Part shown: piece after piece, positions 1 through 56,814 of the stretch
How the letters are laid out: each line of letters starts with the position of its first letter
How positions within the stretch are numbered: the first letter of the stretch is position 1
Origin: a virus
Virus record (IMG/VR): IMGVR_UViG_3300044960_000113
Location: 96,001 to 160,000 of that record
Direction: 5' to 3' (one strand)
DNA length: 64,000 nucleotides
Notes under the pieces: model-generated
The model's input: the letters and a program-made list of their open reading frames with translations, nothing else
The model's database searches: none
Told to the model about the DNA's origin: nothing
Program-made: the position numbers and the translations under genes

Positions 1-906
1 ATCGATTAAACCTTTTTCATAAAGTCTATTGACAATATAATAATGTGTAAATGAAGCAAATCCTTCATTTAAAGTTTTTGTGCTGCCTTGAGGGTAAAAA
101 TATTGTGATATTTTTCTAACAATACGAATTATTTCTCGTTCCCATGGTTTTAAATTTGGTGCATTTTTTTCTATATAATATAGAATATTTTCTTGTGGTT
201 CAATTTCTTTAGGATCAATTTTTGAAGTTTTTGAATCATTTTTTTCAATACCATGAATAGTTTTATTTATTACATCGTCATAATATTGAATTTCTTTATC
301 ATATTTTATTTTTTCTTGCATTAGACGTTCTTCTTCATTTAATCTCTTTTTAGAACGTCTCACGTATGCATCAACACCATGATCACGTAATGAATGACAT
401 GCATCTAATAATTTTTCAACTTCAGAAATTCCATATTTTTCTTCACATGATGCTATATATTTTTTAGCAAATTCCATATAATCTATAATATATTCAGCAT
501 TAGTAAAAGTTTTAAACATATAATTATTTTTAAAAACAAAATTATGTCCAAATGCTGCATGAGCTATAACCAACATTTGCATAGTTGCATCATTTTCTTC
601 CATTAAATAATTAATACATGGGTTAGAATTTATAACCATCTCATATGCAAGCCCCATATTTCCCTTTTTATATTGATTCCAGTTTTTAACAAAATCTTTA
701 CCAAATGACCAATGATTATAATTGACGGGCAAACCTATAGATGAATATGCATCTAGCATCATTTCAGCAGAAACAATTTCTAGTTGATTTGGGTAATATG
801 TCAACTCCATTTCTTTTGTTGCTATTTTTTCGCATTCATCATAAATTTTTTTGATTAATGAAATATTCCAATCTTCACCAGATTTAAATAATAATTTTTT
901 TGGCAT
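1..906 (-). CDS. spoVR: SpoVR/YcgB-family protein (3' end runs off the window)
   Basis: Not in the ORF track. Manual translation from ATG at 906 gives MPKKLLFKSGEDWNISLIKKIYDECEKIATKEMELTYYPNQLEIVSAEMMLDAYSSIGLPVNYNHWSFGKDF, the SpoVR/YcgB N-terminal signature; lies directly downstream of yeaH and prkA. Confidence 0.9.
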   Translation of the reverse strand, partial: MPKKLLFKSGEDWNISLIKKIYDECEKIATKEMELTYYPNQLEIVSAEMMLDAYSSIGLPVNYNHWSFGKDFVKNWNQYKKGNMGLAYEMVINSNPCINYLMEENDATMQMLVIAHAAFGHNFVFKNNYMFKTFTNAEYIIDYMEFAKKYIASCEEKYGISEVEKLLDACHSLRDHGVDAYVRRSKKRLNEEERLMQEKIKYDKEIQYYDDVINKTIHGIEKNDSKTSKIDPKEIEPQENILYYIEKNAPNLKPWEREIIRIVRKISQYFYPQGSTKTLNEGFASFTHYYIVNRLYEKGLID

Positions 907-941
907 TTTTATAAAATTGTATGTAATTTAATTATATATAT

Positions 942-2249
942 TTAATTATTTATTTTTTTTTTAAAGAATTTTCTAAATACTTCATAAATTTGAGATTCAT
1001 CATCAATATATTCTGCATTAAAATTTTTTGTTGTATGTAATAAATTTTTATATGCATCCCAAAGAGGATGATTTCCTGCTATTATAGAAATGTATCTATT
1101 ATTTCTAATTTCTAGATATGAAAAATGTTGTATTTTTGGTAATAATTTATTTTTGATTATATGGATACATTCAGCATTATCTTCATGTATATTGTCTCCG
1201 TCAGATGTTTGACAAATATAAATATTTGTTTCTGCTGGGTTATATCGTTTTGATATAATATCATCTACTAATTTAAGTGCAGATGATACGATAGTTCCTC
1301 CACTTTCACGTGTTGTAAAAAATGTATGTTCATCAACTTCATGTGCAGTATCAGTATGACATATATAAACAATGTCTGGGTTTTCATATTTTCTATGCAC
1401 AAATACATAAAATAGAGTAAAGAATTTTCTAGAAATTGTTTTTTCTCTTTCACCCATAGAACCGGAATTGTCCATGATAAAAAATATTACAGCCTTTGAT
1501 TTTTTCTTTGGTTTATAATCATTAACACGAAAACGAAGATCTATTGTATCTAAGAAAGGGATAGATTTAATCTTCTTCGTATATCCCGTGATTTTCTTTT
1601 CTAATTCTGATATTTTTTTGAGATCATTTTCATCTAAATTATCTTTAGTTTTTATATCATCAATTTCATCTTGTGCTTTTTTAAGCAATTTTTTCCATTT
1701 ACTTTTCAATGCAATTCTTCTTAATTTAGATTGTGTTATTGATCTAATAATAGATAACCTATTAGGTGGACCAACATTAGTAAATCCAGCATGTGTTGGA
1801 ATTATTTCAACTATCTGTGTTTGTTGTTTATCTTCTATATTTGGTAACTCTAAATCTTCAAAAAAATAATTTAAAAATTCATCACGTGAAACATTAACAA
1901 TAAAATCATCTTCACTATTACCCTGTCCAGCAGAAGGACCATTACCTATTCCATTTTCTTTTCTATCTTTTAAAATATCAAATTCATCGCCACGGATATA
2001 TTTATAATTACCACTTAATATAACAGGTCCATGAAAAATTGATTTATCATATATAAATCTTGGTTCTTCTATCGTATTTTGAGATATAATTACATTATTA
2101 TTACTATCTAAATCACCAACTTTTTTGCCAATTATATCAATTGTTTTTTTATTAATAAATGACTTAATTCTTCTTAAAAATCTCTGTTTATTTCCAGAAG
2201 ATCTTTTTTTAGCAACATTTCGTCTATCAATAATTGTAAATGTTGACAT
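942..2249 (-). CDS. yeaH: YeaH/YhbH (DUF444) family vWA-domain protein
   Basis: N-terminal IIDRR..NKQRFLRR, vWA motif FFIMDNSGSM, ESGGTIVSSAL, YICQTSDGDN. Confidence 0.93.
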   Translation of the reverse strand: MSTFTIIDRRNVAKKRSSGNKQRFLRRIKSFINKKTIDIIGKKVGDLDSNNNVIISQNTIEEPRFIYDKSIFHGPVILSGNYKYIRGDEFDILKDRKENGIGNGPSAGQGNSEDDFIVNVSRDEFLNYFFEDLELPNIEDKQQTQIVEIIPTHAGFTNVGPPNRLSIIRSITQSKLRRIALKSKWKKLLKKAQDEIDDIKTKDNLDENDLKKISELEKKITGYTKKIKSIPFLDTIDLRFRVNDYKPKKKSKAVIFFIMDNSGSMGEREKTISRKFFTLFYVFVHRKYENPDIVYICHTDTAHEVDEHTFFTTRESGGTIVSSALKLVDDIISKRYNPAETNIYICQTSDGDNIHEDNAECIHIIKNKLLPKIQHFSYLEIRNNRYISIIAGNHPLWDAYKNLLHTTKNFNAEYIDDESQIYEVFRKFFKKKINN

Positions 2250-2256
2250 TTATTTC

Positions 2257-4221
2257 CTATGAAGTACTCTTTTTAATACGTTGATACCATTCAACAAGTA
2301 ATTTTATTTGTCTTTTTGTATATCCACGTGTCATCATACGTTTAACAAAATCATCATGTTTCTTTTGGTCTTCAGATGAACTTTTTGGACCAAAACTAAT
2401 AACTGGCATAATATCTTCAGTTGCCGAAAACATCTTTTGCTCAATTACAGTTTTTATTTTTTCAAAACTATTCCATCTTGGGAATTCACCTTTATTATTT
2501 GCTTTATGTCTTAACACAAAATTGACAATTTCATGTCTAAAATCTTTTGGATTTGAAATTTGTGCCGGTTTTTCAATTTTGTTTAATTCATCGTCTAATG
2601 CTTTGCGATCATACATTTCATGTGTTTCTGGGTGTCTAAAATCAGTATCTGATATCCATGCATCTGCATACATAACATATTTTTCAAATATGTTTTGACC
2701 ATAATCAGAATATGATTCTAAAAATGCAACACGTAATTCTTTTTCTAAATATTCTACATATTTTGGTATCAATAAACTTTTTATAAAATCTATATAAGTA
2801 TTTTGTATATCTTTTGGCAAATGTTCTTGTTCAATAGAATTTTCTAACACATAAAATAAATGAACAGGGTTTGCTGCAGTTTCTTCTGGATCCATATCAA
2901 ATGTTTTAGATAAAACCTTAAAAGCAAATCTTGTTGACATACCAGTCATACCTTCATTTACACCTACTTTTTCTTTTGCATCATCTTTGTATTCTTGTAA
3001 AGGTTTTGCTTTTGGATCAGTGTCCTTAATATTTTCACCATCATAAACTCTCATTTTTGACCAAATAGAAGAATTTTCTGGTTCAACAAGTCTAGTAAGA
3101 ACAGAAAATCTTGCTAAAATTTGTAATGTATCTGGTGCACATGGTGCTTTTTCTAATGCAGAATTATGAAGTAATTTTTCATAAATTTTTACTTCTTCAG
3201 TAACACGTAAACAATATGGTACTTTAATTATAAAGACTCTATCTAAAAATGCTTCATTTGTTTTATCATTTCTAAATTTTTGCCATTCTGATTCATTTGA
3301 ATGCGCAAAAATGATACCTTGGAAAGGAAGTCCAGAAATTGCCTCTGTTCCATTATAAGAATGAGATTGAGTTGCTTCTAAAAGTGGATTCAACGTTTTA
3401 ATATCAGCTTTAAACATTTCAGCAAAATTGACAACTCCACGATTACCACGACATAAACCACCAGAATAACTATATGCGTATGGATGATTAGATGGATAAT
3501 CTTCTAATTTTCTAATATCAATTTTTCCAACTAATGCTGAAATATCTTGATTATTTGGATCTCCTGGTTCAATTTTAGAAATACAAATTTGATGATCTTT
3601 GCTTGGATAAATTTTTTCTACTGTGAATTTTGATATATCACCACCGAATTCTTTTAACTTTTCATTTACCCATGGAGATGGACGAGTAATAATTACTCTA
3701 GATGGAATATTATATTCATTTTCTAGAAATTTTTTAGCTTCTTGATTATTAAATAAACTTAAAGGATCATCAAACACAGGCGATAGTTCATCTTCTGCAC
3801 GTAAAACATATACTGGTTGTGTTTCCATTAATTCTTCAATTCTATCAACAAGTGATGATTTACCTCCACCAACAGGTCCTAAGAAATAAAGAATTTGTTT
3901 ACTTTCTTCCAATCCTTGAGCATAATGTTTTAAGAACGATACTAAATTTTCTATGGTTTCTTCCATTCCATAAAAGTCTGAAAATGCAGGATAAATACGG
4001 ATTTTACGATTTAAAAAAATTCTTCCTAATCTTGGATCTTCAGATGTATCTATTATTTTTGGTTCGCCTATTGCTTTTAATAAACGTTCTGCTGGAGATG
4101 AATATACAGATGGATCTGATTTACATAAATTTAAATATTCTTCTAATGATAATATATTATTAGAAAACATATTATCAAATCGTTGTTTTGATATTTTTGT
4201 TAATGAATCAAACAAACTCAT
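2257..4221 (-). CDS. prkA: PrkA/YeaG AAA+ ATPase / serine kinase family
   Basis: Walker A LGPVGGGKSS, FYGMEETIE, YSYSGGLCRGNRG, FAEMFKA, HSNESEW, EAFLDR. Confidence 0.95.
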   Translation of the reverse strand: MSLFDSLTKISKQRFDNMFSNNILSLEEYLNLCKSDPSVYSSPAERLLKAIGEPKIIDTSEDPRLGRIFLNRKIRIYPAFSDFYGMEETIENLVSFLKHYAQGLEESKQILYFLGPVGGGKSSLVDRIEELMETQPVYVLRAEDELSPVFDDPLSLFNNQEAKKFLENEYNIPSRVIITRPSPWVNEKLKEFGGDISKFTVEKIYPSKDHQICISKIEPGDPNNQDISALVGKIDIRKLEDYPSNHPYAYSYSGGLCRGNRGVVNFAEMFKADIKTLNPLLEATQSHSYNGTEAISGLPFQGIIFAHSNESEWQKFRNDKTNEAFLDRVFIIKVPYCLRVTEEVKIYEKLLHNSALEKAPCAPDTLQILARFSVLTRLVEPENSSIWSKMRVYDGENIKDTDPKAKPLQEYKDDAKEKVGVNEGMTGMSTRFAFKVLSKTFDMDPEETAANPVHLFYVLENSIEQEHLPKDIQNTYIDFIKSLLIPKYVEYLEKELRVAFLESYSDYGQNIFEKYVMYADAWISDTDFRHPETHEMYDRKALDDELNKIEKPAQISNPKDFRHEIVNFVLRHKANNKGEFPRWNSFEKIKTVIEQKMFSATEDIMPVISFGPKSSSEDQKKHDDFVKRMMTRGYTKRQIKLLVEWYQRIKKSTS

Positions 4222-4264: not shown

Positions 4265-4792
4265 TTATCTTTTATAATATAAAAAACTATATGAATATTC
4301 ATTATTTTCATCTTGTGGAAAATTAGTAACTGACATTAAAGTCCATGATTCATCAATTTTTGGAAAATATGAATCACCCTCAATATTACAATGAACTTTT
4401 GTTATAAACATTTCATTAGTAAATGAATGGTTAATAGCTTGTTCATAAACCTTTTGACCGCCAATTATAAAAATTTTAATGTTTGGTTTATTTTTTATAA
4501 TATCGAACCCATAAAATAATGCATCATCATATGATTTCAAAAATAATATTGATTCATTATATTGTTTATTGTATTTGATTATATTAGATGTTAATACAAA
4601 ATTAATTCTATTTGATAATGGTTTTTCATTAAGTGATTCAAATGTTTTTGATCCCATAACAACAATATTGCCAGTTGTCATGTATTTAAAATTTCGTATA
4701 TCTGTCTTTTGGTGCCAGGGAATTTTATTATTTTTACCGATAACACCATTGTCAGAAACAGCGGCAATTATTGCTACGTTATTCTCTATCAT
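4265..4792 (-). CDS. folA: Dihydrofolate reductase
   Basis: AAVSDNGVIGKNNKIPW, VVMGSKTFES, PLSNRINFVLT, IIGGQKVY, EGDSYFP. Confidence 0.95.
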   Translation of the reverse strand: MIENNVAIIAAVSDNGVIGKNNKIPWHQKTDIRNFKYMTTGNIVVMGSKTFESLNEKPLSNRINFVLTSNIIKYNKQYNESILFLKSYDDALFYGFDIIKNKPNIKIFIIGGQKVYEQAINHSFTNEMFITKVHCNIEGDSYFPKIDESWTLMSVTNFPQDENNEYSYSFLYYKR

Positions 4793-5216
4793 TATATAAA
4801 TATCCTATTATTTTTCCATTTGTTTCAACAGTAAGTGTTTTATAATTAATAGTATGTGCTAATATTTCACCACTATTTTTTATTAATAATGATTGATATG
4901 CATGAACTTTCATGGCTTCTATTTTACCTTCAACAATAATATGATCAGCAGATACTTCTGTTACATTATTTTCGTATATATTAGTATCTACACTTTCTTG
5001 TAAATCATTTGTTTTTTTGGATATTATTCCATCTTTGCCTATATATATTGTAGAATTATTTCCTTTTTCACATCGTATTGATCCAAATACTTGACTGTTA
5101 ATAAAAACACTTTTACCAGCTTCAGCGGTGATATCACCATCAATAATAATTCCATCAATAATGGAATTAAATTGCGTATTTTTTGGTTTAATTTTGTTGA
5201 ACATCTTCAGGTTCAT
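4779..5216 (-). CDS. Bactofilin (polymer-forming cytoskeletal) family protein
   Basis: Beta-helical pattern IIDGDI..VFINSQVFGSI..IYIGKDG..IIVEGKI..LLIKNSGEI..INYKTLTVETNGKIIGYL. Confidence 0.7.
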   Translation of the reverse strand: MNLKMFNKIKPKNTQFNSIIDGIIIDGDITAEAGKSVFINSQVFGSIRCEKGNNSTIYIGKDGIISKKTNDLQESVDTNIYENNVTEVSADHIIVEGKIEAMKVHAYQSLLIKNSGEILAHTINYKTLTVETNGKIIGYLYNDRE

Positions 5217-5670
5217 ATATTGCTCCTGGATTTAATATAATAATAGGACTTTGTTTTGGTAATTCATTTATATTATAAATTCCATTTTCATTAGTATGAA
5301 TAACATCTTTAAAAAATAATTTTAAATCTTTAATTTTAATCCATTTTGGAAATTTTGTATTCTTGAATATACATGCTATTTCTTCAGATTTGGAACTGAT
5401 ATCTTTATCATCAAACACAAAAATAAGTAATTTATCATTAACTTGATGTTCGTGTTTTATGTGTTCATTATTTTTTATGATATTTATTTTTAAACGATTA
5501 AATAATATTGCTAAAAAAATACCAAGGAAGAAAAATGAAGAAAATGAGATTATAAAAGATACAACAATAGAATAAACTATCCCGTATCCTGACGATGAAA
5601 AATCAAGTGCTAATAAAAGCCAAACTATTAAAAATAAAATATCTAAAATTAATCCTAAAAACATAGACAT
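5188..5670 (-). CDS. Hypothetical membrane protein
   Basis: Two N-terminal hydrophobic segments. Confidence 0.6.
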   Translation of the reverse strand: MSMFLGLILDILFLIVWLLLALDFSSSGYGIVYSIVVSFIISFSSFFFLGIFLAILFNRLKINIIKNNEHIKHEHQVNDKLLIFVFDDKDISSKSEEIACIFKNTKFPKWIKIKDLKLFFKDVIHTNENGIYNINELPKQSPIIILNPGAIYEPEDVQQN

Positions 5671-5870
5671 AGTAACTCCTTTTATAGAAAGAATATTATC
5701 TCGTATATATTATAAGAAAATGCATTTCGATATAAAAATTATTGTATTTGTAATGCTTTAAATTTATTTAGACGATCAATTTTGGATAATTTTTTCATTT
5801 ATTTCTTTAGATTCTATTCTGTATCATTTTATTAATGCATTATTTGCATTAATTTTATTTTCTTTAAATT

Positions 5871-6125
5871 CTAATTCAAATAGTTTATTATATTTATATT
5901 ACGTTTAAACGTTTCTAATAAACCTTTTTCATTTTCATCCTTAATATAATAGATATACAAAGCTTGTTGTTGTTTTAATTGTTTTATATTTTCAGCATGT
6001 GCATAATGTTCAACAATTATTATAAATGTTCCAATAATTAAATTAATAAATGTTAAAAATATTCCTATTATTTTTATATATAAATGTTTAACACTTTCTT
6101 CAAAATTATCATCTCTATATTTCAT
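5871..6125 (-). CDS. Hypothetical membrane protein
   Basis: One hydrophobic segment, co-oriented ORF. Confidence 0.5.
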   Translation of the reverse strand: MKYRDDNFEESVKHLYIKIIGIFLTFINLIIGTFIIIVEHYAHAENIKQLKQQQALYIYYIKDENEKGLLETFKRNINIINYLN

Positions 6126-6190
6126 AAATCATTTTTCCACATTAAACATATATATATTAATTTTTATAATTATATTTTTGATATAATATT

Positions 6191-6760
6191 TTATTTATTC
6201 TGAACATTTTGTAAAGGTTTAAAATTCTTTGTGTTCATTTTTTCATGTATTTGTTCAAATGATACCGGATAATAATTCCAATTATCTACACCTACATCTA
6301 ATGATAATGAATTTTGATCGTCTTGTAATGTTCCATGACTATGACCATATAAATGATATGAACCAAAATGTGACTTATCCCAAACTCTCATAGCGTAATG
6401 ACATAAAACAATTTGTTGAATATCATTAGATTTTTTAATATTGACATAAACATTTTTTATATCACTTATACTTTCAAATCGACTTTTTAGAAGATTTGAT
6501 TTACGAATAATTTTATCATGATTGCCTAAAATTAAATGAATTTTTCCATTTAATTTTTTAAGAATGTTATACAATTTATCTTCTTGAGTAAATCCAACGT
6601 CACCTAAATGATAAATAGTATCTCGTTTTGTAACAATAGAATTCCAATTATCAATAAGAATTTGATCCATTTCTTGTGTAGATGTAAATGGTCTATTACA
6701 ATATTTAATAATATTAAAATGTGAGAAATGTGTATCTGAAGTAAAAAATATGTTCGTCAT
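6191..6760 (-). CDS. Calcineurin-like metallophosphoesterase
   Basis: FTSDTHF, YHLGDV, GNHD, LCHY, HLYGHSH motifs. Confidence 0.9.
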   Translation of the reverse strand: MTNIFFTSDTHFSHFNIIKYCNRPFTSTQEMDQILIDNWNSIVTKRDTIYHLGDVGFTQEDKLYNILKKLNGKIHLILGNHDKIIRKSNLLKSRFESISDIKNVYVNIKKSNDIQQIVLCHYAMRVWDKSHFGSYHLYGHSHGTLQDDQNSLSLDVGVDNWNYYPVSFEQIHEKMNTKNFKPLQNVQNK

Positions 6761-7944: not shown

Positions 7945-8373
7945 ATGATTTTATTAATGGGTGAATGCGGTTCTGGTAAAACCACTTTAGCAAATGAATT
8001 AGTGAAACATATTCAATATTCCTGTGTAATTGATTCGGATGTTATTAGGTCATCAATTTATAATTTTGGATATGATGATGATGGAAGACGAAAAAATATG
8101 AGGTTGTGTCTTCAACTCGGTCGATTATATGAAAATTTAGGAATTACACCAATTGTTGCACTTCAAGCACCTTTTAAAGATATACGAGACGAACTGTTAA
8201 CAAAAAACGATTTTAAAATTTTAGTCATAAATAATAATAATCAGAAAAAAATAGAAAATGAAAAAAGAAATGATTGGATTACACCAGTTAGTAATTGGTC
8301 AGATGCAGATTTAACAGTTTATTTTAATGAAGAAGATTGCATTAGCAAAATTTTATCACGTATTATTTGGTAA
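7945..8373 (+). CDS. Adenylylsulfate kinase (CysC)-like P-loop kinase
   Basis: GECGSGKTT, IDSDVIR, GYDDDGRRKNMR, IVALQAPFKDIR. Confidence 0.7.
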   Translation: MILLMGECGSGKTTLANELVKHIQYSCVIDSDVIRSSIYNFGYDDDGRRKNMRLCLQLGRLYENLGITPIVALQAPFKDIRDELLTKNDFKILVINNNNQKKIENEKRNDWITPVSNWSDADLTVYFNEEDCISKILSRIIW

Positions 8374-8716: not shown

Positions 8717-9271
8717 TTAAGCAGTTTTTTGTGCAGTTTCTGCTTTTTTTGCTGCTAATGTTGTTTTAAGCTTATTCATCTGCATTTGCAAATTATAAGA
8801 AATTTTCTTTAATTCATCGACAATTTTTTGTTTTTCCTTTTTAACGTTTTCATCTTTTGATGGTTTTTCAAGAAGTTCTAATTTTTTTAAATTATTAGTA
8901 TATAATGTCTTATATGATGCATGATTTTTAAAGAAATTTTTAAGATGTTTTTCAGCTTTATCAGTATTTGGATTTCCTTTTTCACCTAATGCGCTTAAAA
9001 AAATATAAAATTTACTATCATCACCTAAAACATCATGAGCTGCTCTTTCGTCACTATCAGATAAAGAATTTAATCCCGTAATTATTGATGCTAATTCCTC
9101 TTTATTTAATGGATTTTGGCCACTAAAAGGATTTTTATCATTTTCAACAGCATCATTAATTTTTACAATAATTGGTTGTAAGAATTTACCAATATCTTCA
9201 CATAATTTAATAGATTCAGTTAATGTTCTTATTTCTTTTATTTCTTCTAATTCATTCAATAATGAAAACAT
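8717..9271 (-). CDS. Hypothetical protein, late promoter, Glu-ending leader (MFSLLNELEE)
   Basis: ORF preceded by three overlapping TATAAATA boxes at 9304-9323. Confidence 0.6.
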   Translation of the reverse strand: MFSLLNELEEIKEIRTLTESIKLCEDIGKFLQPIIVKINDAVENDKNPFSGQNPLNKEELASIITGLNSLSDSDERAAHDVLGDDSKFYIFLSALGEKGNPNTDKAEKHLKNFFKNHASYKTLYTNNLKKLELLEKPSKDENVKKEKQKIVDELKKISYNLQMQMNKLKTTLAAKKAETAQKTA

Positions 9272-9318
9272 TTTAATCCTTTCTGATTTTAAAATTGTTT
9301 ATATATTTATATTTATAT

Positions 9319-11460
9319 TTATAAAATATGTTTGGTTTTATTATAATTGTCTTTAATGAATTCAACAAGTTCTTCCAAACGAATAGGTCTAGATACAAGG
9401 TAACCCTGATAATTGTGACATCCTATTTCTTTAAGTTTATCTAACTGTTCATATGTTTCTACTCCTTCAGCAGTAACAGAAATATTCATACGACCAGCTA
9501 AATCTTTTACCATAGTTATAATATTTTGTGACTTATCACTTATTAATATATTATCAACAAAAGATTTATCTATTTTCAAAATATCTATTTTAAATTTTGC
9601 TAGATAGTGTAAACTTGAATAACCTGTTCCAAAATCATCTAAAGCTATTTTTATTCCACTATTTTTAATTTTTTCAATATTATTAGATGCTGAATCAATA
9701 TTATTGATAAGCATTGATTCTGTTATTTCTATACATAGTTTTGTTGGGTCAATGTTTTCTTTTATTATTTTATTTTTTAATTTTGTAACAGTTTCTTCAT
9801 TTAAATCCTTTGCAGAAAAATTCATAGAAAAATATAAATTAGATATATCTACTTTATCTTGAATTAATTTTATATCTCTTATACATCTATCTATAACAAA
9901 ATTTGTTAATTTATGAATCATTCCAGCATCTTCAACAATATGAATAAATAAATTCGGTGTTATAATAGCATTATTTCTTCTATCTTCCCATCTTAATAAG
10001 GCCTCTACACCAACAATTTTATTAGTACTTATTGAAATAATAGGTTGATAAAATAAATGAAGTTCATCATACCCTAGAGCACGTCTAATACCATTTTCTA
10101 TCTTAACTCTATATTCAACTCTAGCATCTATTTCTTCTTTATAAAATTGAAAATTATTTCTACCAGATTCTTTAGCATAATACATTGCTGCATCTGCACA
10201 TTCTAATAATTCATTTATATTTGTTGAATCATCTGGATAAACGCTTATTCCTATAGATGCTGATATATTAATTTTTTTAGTTCCACCATTTAATTCTATA
10301 GGATTTTCTAAACTATTTAGAATTTTAATTGCTATACGCTCTACATATTTAATATCACATATATTATGTATTACTATAACAAACTCATCACCACCTAATC
10401 TAATAATAAGATCATTTTCTCTTACTGTTGATTTTAATATTTTAGCTACATTTTTTAATAAAATATCTCCAGTTGAATGACCATATGTATCATTGATTAA
10501 TTTAAATCTATCTAGATCTAAATAAAATAATGCTATTTTTTTATTATTAGATCTAGCTTCAGCAAATAGATCATTTATTTTTACATTTAATAATTCCCTA
10601 TTTCCTAGTCCTGTCAAAACATCATGATGTGCTAAAAAATTTATTTTTTCTTCTTTTATTTTTAATTCTGTTATATCTGAAAATTCACCAATATAACCAA
10701 TTATTTCATTATTATCATCTTTGACTGTTGATATTATAAGATGTTCTGGGTATATTTCACCAGTCTTTTTCTTATTCCATATTTCACCTTTCCACGTACC
10801 AGTATTTAAAATTGAATTCCACATATTTTTATAAAAATCTGGATTATGAATTCCTGATGATAATATATTAGGTTTTTTACCTAAAACTTCATCTATTGAA
10901 TATCCTGTTATATTACTAAACATCTGATTTACAAATGTTATTTTAATATCGTCATCACATATCATTATTCCATGAGAACTATATTTAAGTGCTGCCAATG
11001 CATAATTAATTTGTTTTTCTTGTTTAAATACTTTTTCCGATAAAAGTTTATAATTTGTTATGTTTTTGCCTGTTCCACGGTATCCATTAAAAATACCTAA
11101 ATCATCTATAATTGGAACACCATTTAATTCAAACCAATATGTTCTATTATATTTGTCTTTAAAAGAATATATAAATCCGTGAAACGGTAATCTTTTATTT
11201 ATTTTATCTTTATATTCATTTAACACATTTATATCTTCAAATCCAAAAGATTCTATTTCACATATTTTTTTGCCTAAAAAATCCTCTTTATCAAAACCAG
11301 TAATAAGAAAAAATTTATCAGATAGATAAGTAAAAACAAGATTTTCATCTTGTTCCCAATACCAATCACAAGAAATGTCTAATAATTCTTGATTTTTTAT
11401 ATATAATTTTAGTATTTCATCTTCAACTATTTTTGAAGATGTGCATATTTCTTCTGACAT
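9319..11460 (-). CDS. PAS-PAS-GGDEF-EAL diguanylate cyclase/phosphodiesterase
   Basis: PAS (DWYWEQDENL; PNILSSGIH..GEIWNKKKTG), HDVLTGLGNR, RENDLIIRLGGDEF (RxxD I-site plus GGDEF), VEALLRW, EITES, DDFGTGYSSL, EGVET, QGY. Confidence 0.96.
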   Translation of the reverse strand: MSEEICTSSKIVEDEILKLYIKNQELLDISCDWYWEQDENLVFTYLSDKFFLITGFDKEDFLGKKICEIESFGFEDINVLNEYKDKINKRLPFHGFIYSFKDKYNRTYWFELNGVPIIDDLGIFNGYRGTGKNITNYKLLSEKVFKQEKQINYALAALKYSSHGIMICDDDIKITFVNQMFSNITGYSIDEVLGKKPNILSSGIHNPDFYKNMWNSILNTGTWKGEIWNKKKTGEIYPEHLIISTVKDDNNEIIGYIGEFSDITELKIKEEKINFLAHHDVLTGLGNRELLNVKINDLFAEARSNNKKIALFYLDLDRFKLINDTYGHSTGDILLKNVAKILKSTVRENDLIIRLGGDEFVIVIHNICDIKYVERIAIKILNSLENPIELNGGTKKINISASIGISVYPDDSTNINELLECADAAMYYAKESGRNNFQFYKEEIDARVEYRVKIENGIRRALGYDELHLFYQPIISISTNKIVGVEALLRWEDRRNNAIITPNLFIHIVEDAGMIHKLTNFVIDRCIRDIKLIQDKVDISNLYFSMNFSAKDLNEETVTKLKNKIIKENIDPTKLCIEITESMLINNIDSASNNIEKIKNSGIKIALDDFGTGYSSLHYLAKFKIDILKIDKSFVDNILISDKSQNIITMVKDLAGRMNISVTAEGVETYEQLDKLKEIGCHNYQGYLVSRPIRLEELVEFIKDNYNKTKHIL

Positions 11461-11486
11461 GTTAATATTATGTTGTTATTAATATA

Positions 11487-11494
11487 TATTTATA
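11487..11494 (-). promoter_or_regulatory. T4-type late promoter TATAAATA upstream of the GGDEF-EAL gene
   Basis: Exact TATAAATA on the minus strand 27 nt before the ATG, just downstream of a terminator hairpin. Confidence 0.6.
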
Positions 11495-11501
11495 TAAAAT
11501 A

Positions 11502-11530
11502 ATGGGATAACTTTTTAAAAGTTATCCCAT
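11502..11530 (-). terminator. Intrinsic terminator-like hairpin
   Basis: ATGGGATAAC..GTTATCCCAT perfect 10-bp stem followed by T-rich tail. Confidence 0.65.
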
Positions 11531-11558
11531 CATAACAAATATATATAAAATATTAAAT

Positions 11559-11894
11559 TTACATATGTGTTGATAATGATAATCCACTTGTATGTTCAAG
11601 AAATGCATCTTGAAGTTGTTTCGAAATATCAGTATTTACACTACATATTGTGCTAATTTGAATAGAAATTGTTCCATCCATATTCGTAAACATAAATGGA
11701 ACCAACGTCAAACCAATTCTACCACTACCATCTCCACCAATTTCAATACGTCTTACTTTTTCGATTTTTATAAAATATTTTTCATCATCTTTAATATTGT
11801 TTAACATAGATGATAAATAGCGTAAATTATTGTCATCAATGCGACCAATGATTTCTTCTCCATTTACAAGCTTTAATGCTATAATATTATTCAT
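11559..11894 (-). CDS. Conserved T4-like phage small protein (Sm-like fold, tentative)
   Basis: LKLVNGEEIIG..LVPFMF..FLEHTSGL pattern recalled from large T4-like phages. Confidence 0.55.
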   Translation of the reverse strand: MNNIIALKLVNGEEIIGRIDDNNLRYLSSMLNNIKDDEKYFIKIEKVRRIEIGGDGSGRIGLTLVPFMFTNMDGTISIQISTICSVNTDISKQLQDAFLEHTSGLSLSTHM

Positions 11895-12234: not shown

Positions 12235-12942
12235 TTAATTGAATTCAGTTCCACCTTTACGTGTTAAATAATCTTCACTAACACTCTTAAGAATAACTCT
12301 TCCTAATTGCGGGTGATTTCTTTCATTTTTAGGTTTAACAACAACACCTTCACGAATATGTTTAGCTTTTCCGGATACTGTTTCTTTTCCAACAGTATAT
12401 TTCATAACAGTATCTTTTGAATATGGGCCAACAAATAATATTGGAACCATTTCTAATTTTAATTTATCTTTCATTTCTGTTAATGTTTCAAAATCAGTAA
12501 ATTTAATATTTTGTCTATATCCCCTAGCAATATCAAAAATTCTAAATGAAATTTTTTCTCCATATGTCAAATCTTGGACTCCCGGACCATATATTTCACC
12601 CAATATATGAATAGGTTCTTCAAGTTCCACGTTTTTAAACGTGTTTAATACAATATCAATTATTCCCATACTTCTCAACGTTCTAATATAAATATTATCC
12701 TTGTTTTTTTCATTATTTTTAAAACACAAACCTTTACTTCCGAGACCTTTGCTATATACAAGGATACGGCCATCAATCATATCATCAGTTCCATCTTTTT
12801 CAGGAACAAAAGTAATACCACAAAACGAATTATGGACTAATATATTATTAGCAAAAAAATTATTAACATTATTAACTTCTATATCATAACGCATTGAAGT
12901 ATTTTCAATTTTTTTGATAGATTTAATTTTAACCGTTTTCAT
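12235..12942 (-). CDS. Split-intein C part (38 aa) fused to RNA ligase C-extein
   Basis: MKTVKIKSIKK..YDIEV..NFFANNILVHN|S; extein has ILGEIYGPGVQ, FDI, REGVVVKP, ILKSVSEDYL (RNA ligase motifs). Confidence 0.92.
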   Translation of the reverse strand: MKTVKIKSIKKIENTSMRYDIEVNNVNNFFANNILVHNSFCGITFVPEKDGTDDMIDGRILVYSKGLGSKGLCFKNNEKNKDNIYIRTLRSMGIIDIVLNTFKNVELEEPIHILGEIYGPGVQDLTYGEKISFRIFDIARGYRQNIKFTDFETLTEMKDKLKLEMVPILFVGPYSKDTVMKYTVGKETVSGKAKHIREGVVVKPKNERNHPQLGRVILKSVSEDYLTRKGGTEFN

Positions 12943-12950
12943 TTTATTTC

Positions 12951-13100
12951 CTATAATAAAAAATTAATAATTCTATTTTTAACATTATCAAAATTCTTTC
13001 TTATGTCATTTTCCCATAGTACTGAAACATTATATCCTTGTTGTTCTGCTAAATTAATTTTTATTTTATCTCTATTCCAAATGTCTTTAACTTTCGCATT
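12951..13100 (-). pseudogene. C-terminal remnant of a Vsr-like endonuclease gene between the split-intein halves
   Basis: Manual translation NAKVKDIWNRDKIKINLAEQQGYNVSVLWENDIRKNFDNVKNRIINFLL*; RD..K...A...GY.V..LWE.D resembles Vsr/DUF559-type C-termini; in frame just after the IntN stop. Confidence 0.65.
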
Positions 13101-13919
13101 TTAAGAATATAATAAAAATTCATCATTTTCTGTCAAGAATTTAACTTCTCTATAACAATTTAATTTAGGTAACCAAACTAAATGATTTTCTGTTAATTTA
13201 ATAATCTGTCCATCTTCAGTTTCAATTTCATACCATTGTTTATCATTTGGGAATATAGAATGTCCATTAATTTTTTCATAAACAACTTCATTAGTAGTTA
13301 TATCAAAAGCTTTTACGTGACAAAATATCTTTTTATCGCAAACCTGCCCAATTTTAATAGGACCAAATTCTAATGTATCAATTATTGTATCATAATCAGC
13401 ACAGCCATGAATTTTTTCTGTAACTACAACATCTTCACCATCTTCAAAAACATCTGGCCACGCTTTAATATTTTCAATGTCATAATTTACTGTCAAACGC
13501 GTACCTGCATTAAATACTTCTCCTGCCATATGAACAGGAATTGGCGGTTCATACTTAACAATGCCCAATTCCTCAGCAACATCAACTCCTTCTACATGTA
13601 AATCTGAATTATTCAATGCACTCACTGGAATAACAATACCAAGTGACAACTCACCCCTAAGCTTTATTGCTTTAACTCTATCACCTTTTGATCCAGCAAG
13701 CATTCCTTTATTTTCTTTTTCATTCCAAAATCCATATTTTTTCAAAATCCATTCTGGAACGATAGCAGCTTCTGGAATATATACAACAAGATCACCAGTT
13801 TTATATTGACCTTTTTTTACCACACAATGATAATCATCAACTTTAGCTAATTCTAAAGCATCAGCATTTGGATGTGGCAATATTTCTATTTTACGTACTT
13901 TAACAGAAAAAGTACTCAT
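13101..13919 (-). CDS. RNA ligase (DRB0094/Rnl2-like) N-extein fused to split-intein N part (100 aa)
   Basis: HPNADALE, VVYIPE, RVKAIKLRG, motif I TEKIHG|CADYDT.., intein block B KLTENH. Confidence 0.92.
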   Translation of the reverse strand: MSTFSVKVRKIEILPHPNADALELAKVDDYHCVVKKGQYKTGDLVVYIPEAAIVPEWILKKYGFWNEKENKGMLAGSKGDRVKAIKLRGELSLGIVIPVSALNNSDLHVEGVDVAEELGIVKYEPPIPVHMAGEVFNAGTRLTVNYDIENIKAWPDVFEDGEDVVVTEKIHGCADYDTIIDTLEFGPIKIGQVCDKKIFCHVKAFDITTNEVVYEKINGHSIFPNDKQWYEIETEDGQIIKLTENHLVWLPKLNCYREVKFLTENDEFLLYS

Positions 13920-56481: not shown

Positions 56482-56760
56482 AATGCAAGCTGATTTGATG
56501 ACAAGGACAGCTTGCGAAACCTCGTGGTGATTACGCTGCTAGGCGCATCTCTCCAAAATATTCATCATTTGCTGCATTTATTTTAGTTTTGTCTTCTCAA
56601 TAACGGCTTTAGACATTGCCGAGCGCCTTTTATTAGTACTAATCGTTACCACGTCGAAACCATATACCACCCCATATTAAAATTTTAATCTATTGGTGGA
56701 GTGGGCGGGAATCGAACCCGCGTCCGCAATAACTTTCCCTTATAAAAGGTTTACGCTGTT
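56482..56760 (-). ncRNA. ssrA: Two-piece (circularly permuted) tmRNA
   Basis: Acceptor piece ..GACGCGGGTTCGATTCCCGCCCACTCCACCA (ends 56694) precedes coding piece GGGGTGG..TTCGAC (starts 56673); G3-U70; tag ANDEYFGEMRLAA* at 56531-56572. Outer ends approximate. Confidence 0.93.
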
Positions 56761-56814
56761 TTACTACATTTACACAAACGCCAATTTGTGTTCTTTATTT
56801 GTTATATTTATATT

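Follow-up and report, generated by a model that had tools for sequence, protein, structure and literature searches.

An uncultured T4-related jumbo phage carries an accessory gene for a soluble protein in which two PAS domains precede a GGDEF and an EAL domain, and this enzyme (P0001) probably acts on the c-di-GMP of the host, most likely as a phosphodiesterase, a reading to which we give a probability of about 0.55. The gene, defined by translation of its ORF and by Pfam matches, encodes 713 amino acids and occupies positions 9319–11460 of a 64,000-nucleotide window (positions 96,001 to 160,000 of the IMG/VR record IMGVR_UViG_3300044960_000113) and, like the domains, hairpin, upstream motif and downstream ORF described below, it lies on the minus strand. 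It is a real and well-preserved example of an under-described kind of phage gene.

The initial annotation listed intact GGDEF, RxxD I-site, EAL and DDFGTGYSS motifs together with two PAS sensors, the motifs were read in the translation, and all of these elements are conserved in diverged homologues. The EAL domain (positions 9385–10089, residues 458–692) was matched by Pfam with an E-value of 8.9e-66 and 222 bits against a cut-off of 31.3, and the GGDEF domain (10153–10632, residues 277–436) with 3.2e-47 and 160.7 bits against 23.8, a separate search with PF00990 giving 164.7 bits. The PAS_9, PAS and PAS_3 families each matched two stretches, corresponding to PAS2 (10675–10971, residues about 164–262) and PAS1 (11062–11364, residues about 33–133). 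In a structure model of the protein, with a mean pLDDT of 84.8, helical linkers join the domains. The I-site R347-E-N-D350 is followed, after five residues, by G356-G-D-E-F360, an arrangement kept in the homologues P0002 and P0003, and the GGDEF contacts D315, D317, K320, N323, D332, R354, K430 and R434 are all present; their roles in binding metal, guanine and phosphate are those we assume from PleD and WspR. For the EAL domain we take the residues of an active enzyme to be those of RocR and TBD1265 (ExLxR, N, ExxE, DDFGTGYSS, KxD, EGVE and QGY). The EAL motif lies at 486–488 and loop 6, DDFGTGYSS, at 608–616, and E486, L488, R490, N547, E578, E581, D608, D609, K629, E665, E668 and Q685 are invariant in both of the alignments described below. 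By sequence, then, the two catalytic sites and the feedback I-site are competent. The Hypr variant of the GGDEF domain was rejected: its signature is Ser in place of Asp at the residue that contacts guanine and corresponds to D344 of PleD, and P0001 has Asp332 there (in GHSTGD), which is invariant in all homologues. The Hypr family, which makes cGAMP, has been described in PMC6456294.

Close homologues are P0002, P0003 and P0121–P0124. Conservation was assessed in a phage-lineage alignment of three homologues, P0002 and P0003 among them, and in a second alignment of 18 diverse homologues. Two homologues have diverged to 81% and 70% identity without a change at any of the 39 positions for catalysis, metal, substrate and the I-site. 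These positions are invariant in the phage-lineage alignment while 35% of its columns vary (chance probability about 4e-8), as is the whole of loop 6, and with the exception of R434 the 18-sequence alignment shows no variation at them either. The homologue with 70% identity stands in NCBI under a Woesearchaeota MAG; where phage contigs are mis-binned in this way, c-di-GMP genes may be wrongly attributed to archaea.

The gene is part of a variable island flanked by an RNA ligase gene and an HNH gene, and three related loci retain both of these neighbours without the enzyme. Among 12 related records a GGDEF domain was found in one, as a stand-alone gene, and an EAL domain in none. The gene is therefore accessory and, being absent from most related phages, dispensable for the lineage. 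This absence, and a location among mobile elements (HNH, split intein), would suit a captured bacterial gene without a role in infection, or a protein that merely binds c-di-GMP or GTP. Such a passenger is improbable given that none of the 39 functional residues has changed over 30% divergence, that the base composition matches that of the phage and that the stem of the clade is about 1.2 substitutions per site long; taken together, these three observations argue for long residence under selection.

The immediate neighbourhood, with an RNA ligase carrying intein pieces, the HNH gene and a phosphoesterase, belongs to the replication, RNA-repair and tRNA part of a 184-kb phage fragment with 25–28% GC, along which the GC content is uniform (23–34%). 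The phage encodes DnaB, PolB, topoisomerase II and helicases, together with 32 tRNA genes and one tmRNA. A Pfam search for Gp23 had no match in this phage or in the control genomes, and so carries no weight. That the composition of the gene resembles that of the phage had been proposed earlier and is borne out by GC content (23.9% against 27.6 ± 3.7% for phage genes of at least 250 amino acids), by GC3 (8.8% against 12.0 ± 4.5% for the same set) and by codon usage, where the gene falls at the 31st percentile of distance. These results bear on whether host DNA had been mis-joined into a phage contig, the circumstance that was to overturn the initial annotation. Many nominally viral GGDEF-EAL records do resemble host flanks or contamination, with matches at contig ends, for example, and contigs labelled 'Acinetobacter phage MD-2021a' hold many GGDEF-EAL genes. 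Here, however, phage genes lie on both sides within 1–3 kb, the gene agrees with the phage in GC3 and codon usage, the share of FYMINK residues in the protein is 42% (26% in cellular homologues), and the identical protein occurs on two contigs, the listed sources of which are JGI/IMG and Logan. A joining artefact is highly improbable and the evidence supports a phage-borne gene rather than a chimera. No deposited phage matched the 11 kb around the gene in a megablast search.

The origin of the gene was less tractable. The best cellular homologues are only about 43% identical, and the phylogeny that had been suggested as a route to the donor lineage pinned down no donor. A FastTree analysis placed the clade beside two viral-contig genes with an SH-like support of 95, whereas the same grouping received an SH-aLRT of only 12 under a site-mixture model in IQ-TREE (64 rows), and for this reason an earlier designation of the clade as a phage-resident lineage was given up. 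Related genes recur among uncultured giant phages, and at least 331 viral contigs in IMG/VR carry them, some on verified jumbo phages; the PHROG family phrog_11823 matches P0001 at 1.9e-150. Scans of viral contigs with P0001, its alignment and its downstream neighbour detected no relative, and one metagenome scan yielded relatives of at most 45% identity. Several GGDEF-EAL ORFs on IMG/VR contigs (the 706-residue ORF of L135, and those of G018/L124 and G022/L134) share the architecture of P0001, and that of L135 has an intact I-site, GGDEF, EAL and loop 6 and adjoins homologues of the HNH and LRR genes of the present phage; G018, G021 and G022 share its T4-type polymerase. The L135, G018 and G022 ORFs are, however, only 31–40% identical to P0001 and occupy other genomic positions and, with an SH-aLRT of 12 in the better tree, common descent of these genes within phages is unsupported.

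Of the two sensors, PAS2 has its closest sequence relatives among the FAD-binding PAS domains of MmoS and NifL (3ewk, 4.4e-18; 2gj3, 2.5e-14), and the nifL model matches residues 164–274 with an E-value of 1.4e-27. The score of 96 bits lies below the equivalog cut-off of 242, and P0001 is therefore not NifL itself. PAS2 is best regarded as a PAS domain of the NifL/MmoS FAD type, with predicted flavin binding and a predicted response to redox state. PAS1 has a weak LOV-like fold without the flavin motif, the R and Q of GxNCRFLQ being absent. A LOV-type blue-light photoreceptor was considered for both domains and discarded: PAS2 carries GKKPNILSSG at the place of the GxNCRFLQ motif with its photoactive Cys, and Cys67 of PAS1, although aligned with the LOV Cys, is not conserved, P0002 and P0003 having Trp there.

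The direction in which the enzyme would shift c-di-GMP levels is best approached through its characterised relatives. Among solved structures, the best matches are MorA (4rnh), RmcA (PA0575, 5m3c) and RbdA (5xgb) of Pseudomonas aeruginosa, to which residues 275–698 align with E-values from 1.8e-88 (4rnh) to 1e-61, and DosP. The three Pseudomonas proteins are likewise PAS-linked tandem GGDEF-EAL enzymes with both motifs intact, and with an I-site too in the case of RbdA and RmcA (PMC10874727). They differ from P0001 in being chromosomally encoded and membrane-anchored or larger, whereas P0001 is soluble, phage-encoded and about 40% identical at best, with a different sensor set of one weak and one flavin-type PAS domain. 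Both domains are intact in RmcA and RbdA, which act as phosphodiesterases activated in a GTP-dependent manner; MorA is bifunctional in vitro and a phosphodiesterase in vivo (PMC10874727). The best curated models, DibA, PRK10060, DosP, Tlr1612 and GepA, all describe phosphodiesterases, PRK10060 being annotated only as a cyclic di-GMP phosphodiesterase. P0001 shares the domain order of the NCBIfam models DibA, PRK10060 and DosP over residues 146–708, but its scores (514, 351 and 333) are far under the respective equivalog cut-offs (980, 782 and 857), which places it outside these families. Since the nearest characterised relatives are net phosphodiesterases, a lowering of c-di-GMP is favoured.

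Net synthesis of c-di-GMP by P0001 is also possible. As a net diguanylate cyclase the enzyme would raise c-di-GMP, leading either to a sessile, matrix-producing cell or to the shutting off of flagella or pili that serve as receptors, and hence to superinfection exclusion, with the EAL domain as a brake or switch. GGDEF motif, RxxD I-site, substrate and metal residues are all intact, the GGDEF domain is the most conserved (in the three phage-lineage homologues 72.9% of its positions are invariant, compared with 64.2% in EAL), and net synthesis prevails in vivo for tandem enzymes of the MucR type (PMC10874727). Moreover, stand-alone GGDEF genes occur in the one related phage record mentioned above and in the cultured lytic jumbo Bacillus phages G (gp350/351) and SP-15 (SP15_150, annotated as 'diguanylate cyclase' and located among glycosyltransferase genes). 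The Bacillus phage genes resemble P0001 in carrying a c-di-GMP-type domain and differ in lacking PAS and EAL domains; among deposited phage records, none matches the tandem protein over 80% or more of its length. Against net synthesis stand the phosphodiesterase character of the nearest tandem enzymes and curated models and the finding that the intact GGDEF domains of RbdA and RmcA serve as GTP sensors without synthesis in vitro (PMC10874727). We consider net cyclase activity rather unlikely, although the intact and strongly conserved GGDEF domain with its I-site fits a working cyclase as well. The earlier proposal that the phage rewires the c-di-GMP signalling of its host is partly supported: the gene is phage-borne with both domains intact, and a fall in c-di-GMP is the favoured direction.

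The phage encodes a PrkA homologue 61–65% identical to gammaproteobacterial YeaG, for which reason the host probably uses c-di-GMP, and its tmRNA is nearest to a betaproteobacterial model. Whether the enzyme is linked to the PrkA-YeaH-SpoVR genes was also considered, but the idea is no more than a side observation: they lie close together in two phages and 109 kb apart in a third, and they are absent from three others. Neither a PilZ domain nor a c-di-GMP riboswitch was found in the 184 kb, and the targets must therefore be those of the host; a second GGDEF or EAL domain was likewise not found in the fragment. CheckV completeness of the phage genome is 52% and, with about half of the genome in hand, receptors or partner enzymes may be encoded elsewhere.

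It had also been suggested that the enzyme degrades cyclic-nucleotide signals, which, as an anti-defence function, could apply only to c-di-GMP-based CBASS and found no support here. In that event, the EAL domain would destroy c-di-GMP passed from a CBASS-type CD-NTase to STING-like effectors, in a host without ordinary c-di-GMP signalling. The EAL site is intact, and c-di-GMP is a phage-defence signal in some lineages according to PMC13725321, which cites Morehouse et al. 2020. A plain EAL domain would be enough for this purpose, yet two PAS domains, an intact GGDEF domain and the I-site are conserved, and a working cyclase would set off the very defence in question. The hints from PrkA and tmRNA point to Pseudomonadota, which use c-di-GMP widely, a PADLOC search found no families and no defence or anti-defence family lies near the gene. 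We regard counter-defence as having little probability.

The gene is preceded by a hairpin with a U-tract (11499–11533; 16 pairs) that resembles an intrinsic terminator and would end the upstream transcription unit. Its folding energy is -25.8 kcal/mol (z -6.07), and none of 200 shuffled sequences folds as well. No terminator was found downstream of the gene as far as position 8300, and the earlier description of the gene as insulated is therefore true of one side only. Just after the hairpin, 26 nt before the ATG, lies TATAAATA (11487–11494), a candidate promoter element of the -35-independent, T4-late type; a sigma-70 scan found no -35 hexamer paired with this copy, and no Shine-Dalgarno-like sequence was seen before the ATG. 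The motif occurs 36 times in the window against 29.2 ± 5.1 expected, a count reached by 10 of 100 shuffles. It precedes 22 genes, compared with 24 for the commonest AT-rich 8-mer; in 17 of these 22 the nearest site is 23–46 nt from the start. It precedes none of the identified replication genes, though few copies would be expected there, and it also lies close to tRNA and tmRNA genes. In DNA of 26% GC, where it is no commoner than chance, TATAAATA alone is no evidence of late expression; the motif named in the initial annotation is thus in place and the label of late gene draws no support from it. Downstream, an ORF of 184 amino acids belonging to no known family (P0125, 8717–9271) is preceded by three overlapping copies of TATAAATA (9304–9323) and, as no terminator separates the two genes, it may be co-transcribed with the enzyme gene. 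An Atlas search with P0125 returned only generic helical-bundle look-alikes.

More tentatively, and with a probability well below that of the phosphodiesterase reading, these elements may be combined into a redox-gated bifunctional c-di-GMP switch, expressed from a T4-type late promoter on a joint transcript with the downstream helical protein and producing a late flip between sessility and dispersal, or a receptor shut-off. It would amount to an autonomous viral signalling node common to many uncultured giant phages.

In most bacteria c-di-GMP decides between a motile and a biofilm life, and the phage probably uses the enzyme to reset motility and biofilm signalling in the infected cell. In the favoured phosphodiesterase reading, the gene, with its own candidate start signal directly after the terminator, would yield a soluble and probably dimeric enzyme, in which an N-terminal helix, PAS1, a helical linker, the flavin-type PAS2 and a signalling helix lead to the GGDEF domain, a further helix and the EAL domain. 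During infection it would act on the host c-di-GMP pool, most probably by hydrolysis, with the PAS sensors, through redox or flavin input, and GTP at the GGDEF site controlling its EAL activity, by analogy with the nearest characterised relatives; some cyclase activity may be retained for switching. With less c-di-GMP the infected cell would make less matrix and be less sessile, and from this the phage might gain a host that is metabolically active, the release of its progeny out of a biofilm or mat, or altered surface receptors that depend on c-di-GMP. At least one phage receptor, that of phage N4, is gated by c-di-GMP (PMC8669472).

No paper on GGDEF or EAL enzymes encoded by phages turned up in a literature search. 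In the papers found, the effects of phages on the c-di-GMP pathway were those of small peptides, the YIPs of PB1-like Pseudomonas phages, which likewise alter host c-di-GMP and which bind the host cyclase YfiN (PMC8085984), whereas here the phage brings the enzyme itself. If the present reading is correct, a jumbo phage of virulent type carries a sensor-linked enzyme with which viruses would set the level of the messenger directly and couple it to a signal, for instance redox state or GTP. With related genes on hundreds of viral contigs, this may be a general theme in the takeover of biofilm communities by phages.

The gene under study lies on the minus strand of the window (11460 to 9319), within an IMG/VR virus record of 184,280 bp (window: bases 96001-160000; CheckV completeness 52%), and its translation yields a protein of 713 amino acids in which Pfam recognises two PAS stretches, a GGDEF domain (residues 277-436, 3.2e-47) and an EAL domain (residues 458-692, E 8.9e-66). 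The two PAS domains and the motifs described as intact in the initial annotation were all borne out: GGDEF (356-360), an allosteric I-site, REND, five residues before it (347-350), EAL (486-488) and DDFGTGYSS (608-616). Modelling with AlphaFold2 from 18 homologues (mean pLDDT 84.8, pTM 0.48) predicts an N-terminal helix, PAS1 (33-133), a long helix, PAS2 (164-262), a signalling helix, the GGDEF domain, a helix and the EAL barrel; given the pTM value, the inter-domain packing is unreliable. PAS2 has its nearest kin among PAS domains that bind FAD, those of MmoS and NifL, and on sequence comparison a LOV photoreceptor identity was rejected for both PAS domains.

The enzyme gene is a phage gene and not host DNA. 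The contig encodes a DnaB-type helicase, a family-B polymerase, both topoisomerase II subunits and helicases, together with 32 tRNA genes and a tmRNA, and at most 1-3 kb from the enzyme gene lie an intein-interrupted RNA ligase, an HNH endonuclease and a phrog_547 phosphoesterase. GC content ranges from 23 to 34% along the entire contig and the gene falls within the phage range for both GC (23.9%) and GC3 (8.8%), while most phage genes lie further than it does from the phage's mean codon usage, confirming the match in base composition proposed earlier. FYMINK residues constitute 42% of the enzyme versus 26% in cellular homologues, and the gene has therefore drifted long with the phage. Moreover, an identical protein is recorded from two contigs (listed sources JGI/IMG and Logan) and this, with the phage neighbours and composition, argues against a chimera with host DNA and makes an artefact extremely improbable.

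The gene is also accessory. The RNA ligase is common to twelve viral records, at 43-57% identity, one of which carries a GGDEF domain, as a stand-alone frame of 240 amino acids, and none an EAL domain. At three related viral loci, RNA ligase and then HNH genes occur at a spacing of 1.4-6.3 kb without a GGDEF-EAL gene; in the studied phage the interval is 4.8 kb and contains the enzyme gene. Since this order is kept without the gene, and the gene is absent from most relatives, it sits in a variable island among mobile elements. The RNA ligase itself is split between two ORFs (12235-13919, minus strand; Pfam PF01079 and PF14890), with a Hint-like piece ending the N part and an intein-splicing piece opening the C part, and in relatives from the 12 viral records the halves are contiguous or overlapping. 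An upstream ORF of 111 amino acids (11559-11894, minus strand) has no match in Pfam, PHROG or PADLOC; its N-terminus, ALKLVNGEEIIGRI, looks Sm/Hfq-like by eye. The downstream 184-amino-acid ORF (8717-9271, minus strand) matched no family and bears only a generic helical-bundle resemblance.

The upstream ORF is terminated by a strong 16-pair hairpin with a U-tract (11533-11499, on the minus, coding strand; dG -25.8 kcal/mol, z -6.07); a fold this stable was reached by 0 of 200 shuffles. The earlier description of the enzyme gene as insulated by a terminator holds upstream but not downstream, where no terminator occurs as far as 8300, and the 184-amino-acid ORF may therefore be co-transcribed with the enzyme. 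The T4-late-type motif TATAAATA is indeed present (11494-11487, minus strand), after the hairpin and 26 nt before the ATG, with no -35 partner in a sigma-70 scan, and this geometry fits a candidate T4-type late promoter. However, the motif is weak promoter evidence because its 36 copies in the window are not above chance (29.2 +/- 5.1 expected), because it precedes 22 genes, against as many as 24 for other AT-rich 8-mers, and because copies also lie shortly upstream of a tRNA and the tmRNA. Counted in favour of a promoter role are the location of most copies (28 of 36) on the coding strand, a distance of 23-46 nt from the start codon for 17 of the 22 nearest copies, and the lack of copies before identified replication genes, although less than one was expected there by chance. 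Three overlapping copies, in a TATAAA hexamer repeat (9304-9323, minus strand), begin at the enzyme stop codon and precede the 184-amino-acid ORF. No Shine-Dalgarno-like core occurs upstream of the enzyme ATG.

Highest in identity to the enzyme are P0002, at 81%, and the P0003 cluster, at 70%; beyond these, identity is 43% or less, to bacteria of several phyla. A three-way alignment of the enzyme with P0002 and P0003 has 35% variable columns, yet each of the 39 listed residues, 19 of the GGDEF domain and I-site and 20 of the EAL domain, is invariant (chance ~4e-8), nearly all of them also in 18 diverse homologues; conservation is greatest in GGDEF, where 72.9% of columns do not vary, and the N-terminus is the same in homologues. 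A passenger gene, or a protein that merely binds its ligand, appears improbable beside such invariance. A member of the 70% cluster, NCBI MEM4260923.1 (710 amino acids), is filed under a Candidatus Woesearchaeota MAG; its source is probably a low-GC phage contig mis-binned with a low-GC archaeon, which is relevant to surveys of archaeal c-di-GMP genes. The phylogeny names no donor lineage: FastTree, with 182 GGDEF-EAL cores, placed the enzyme clade beside two viral-contig genes, a grouping unsupported by IQ-TREE (LG+C20, 64 rows; SH-aLRT 12), where the clade stem measures about 1.2 substitutions per site.

Enzymes of this kind are already known but under-described, given a PHROGs family with the same architecture (phrog_11823, 1.9e-150), related genes on at least 331 IMG/VR contigs, some of them on jumbo phages sharing the polymerase type of the studied phage (G018, 115 kb; G021, 543 kb; G022, 328 kb with terminal repeats), and a literature search that found no paper on phage-encoded examples. 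The nearest published case is that of the YIP peptides, which act on host YfiN (PMC8085984). An 80-kb viral fragment of 43% GC, L135, encodes a 706-amino-acid PAS-GGDEF-EAL protein with all motifs intact (4629-6749, plus strand), between homologues of the HNH gene (directly upstream) and the LRR-array proteins (downstream) of the studied phage. In deposited phage records, coverage of the enzyme stays below 80%, and the long matches look, from annotations, like host flanks or contamination. Stand-alone GGDEF genes occur in G and SP-15, both cultured jumbo phages of Bacillus, and a partial GGDEF-EAL in a 1.7-kb fragment of cyanophage AS-1. The SP-15 'diguanylate cyclase' (KT624200.1, 133541-134092) lies among consecutive sugar-nucleotide and glycosyltransferase genes, which suggests a glycan or DNA-modification link rather than signalling sensors.

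Host hints come from a PrkA/YeaG-YeaH(-SpoVR) stress module (window 1-4221, minus strand) and the tmRNA (56499-56808, minus strand). The PrkA/YeaG homologue shares 61-65% identity with YeaG, and when one genome per species was scanned the best 80 PrkA loci were all from Gammaproteobacteria or otherwise unclassified Pseudomonadota. The tmRNA, with tag peptide AANDEYFGEMRLAA, has the permuted form in two pieces (RF04321, 92.7 bits); it is nearest the betaproteobacterial model, with a beta_tmRNA score of 62 bits, under the gathering score. Together they point to a host in the Pseudomonadota, where c-di-GMP is widely used. These hints weaken a use of the enzyme against STING-CBASS, an idea raised by the discussion in PMC13725321, and we consider this role a slim prospect. 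The module also occurs at L124 3400-6480, 1.9 kb from the GGDEF-EAL gene of the T4-like fragment G018 (5 kb in the studied phage), and at G021:C1:454756-456645, 109 kb from a PAS-GGDEF gene.

Among solved structures the enzyme best matches MorA (4rnh, 1.8e-88), PA0575/RmcA (5m3c), RbdA (5xgb) and DosP, and among curated models DibA, PRK10060, DosP, Tlr1612 and GepA, these last five all scoring far below equivalog cut-offs. Both domains are intact in RmcA and RbdA, yet these act as phosphodiesterases, activated by GTP through the GGDEF site; MorA is a phosphodiesterase in vivo and bifunctional in vitro, and MucR acts in vivo chiefly as a cyclase (PMC10874727). Net synthesis of c-di-GMP, as for MucR, is unlikely here, and our analysis favours, at a probability of about 0.55, an enzyme that would be gated by redox or flavin input and by GTP and would lower host c-di-GMP. 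The 184 kb carry no PilZ domain, second GGDEF or EAL domain, or c-di-GMP riboswitch, and any effect would therefore operate through host receptors. Although no surprise in itself, the enzyme is well preserved and would make a promising subject for biochemistry. For the infected host, a reduced c-di-GMP level could result in dispersal, less matrix and receptor changes, as suggested by the established role of c-di-GMP and the phage N4 receptor case (PMC8669472).
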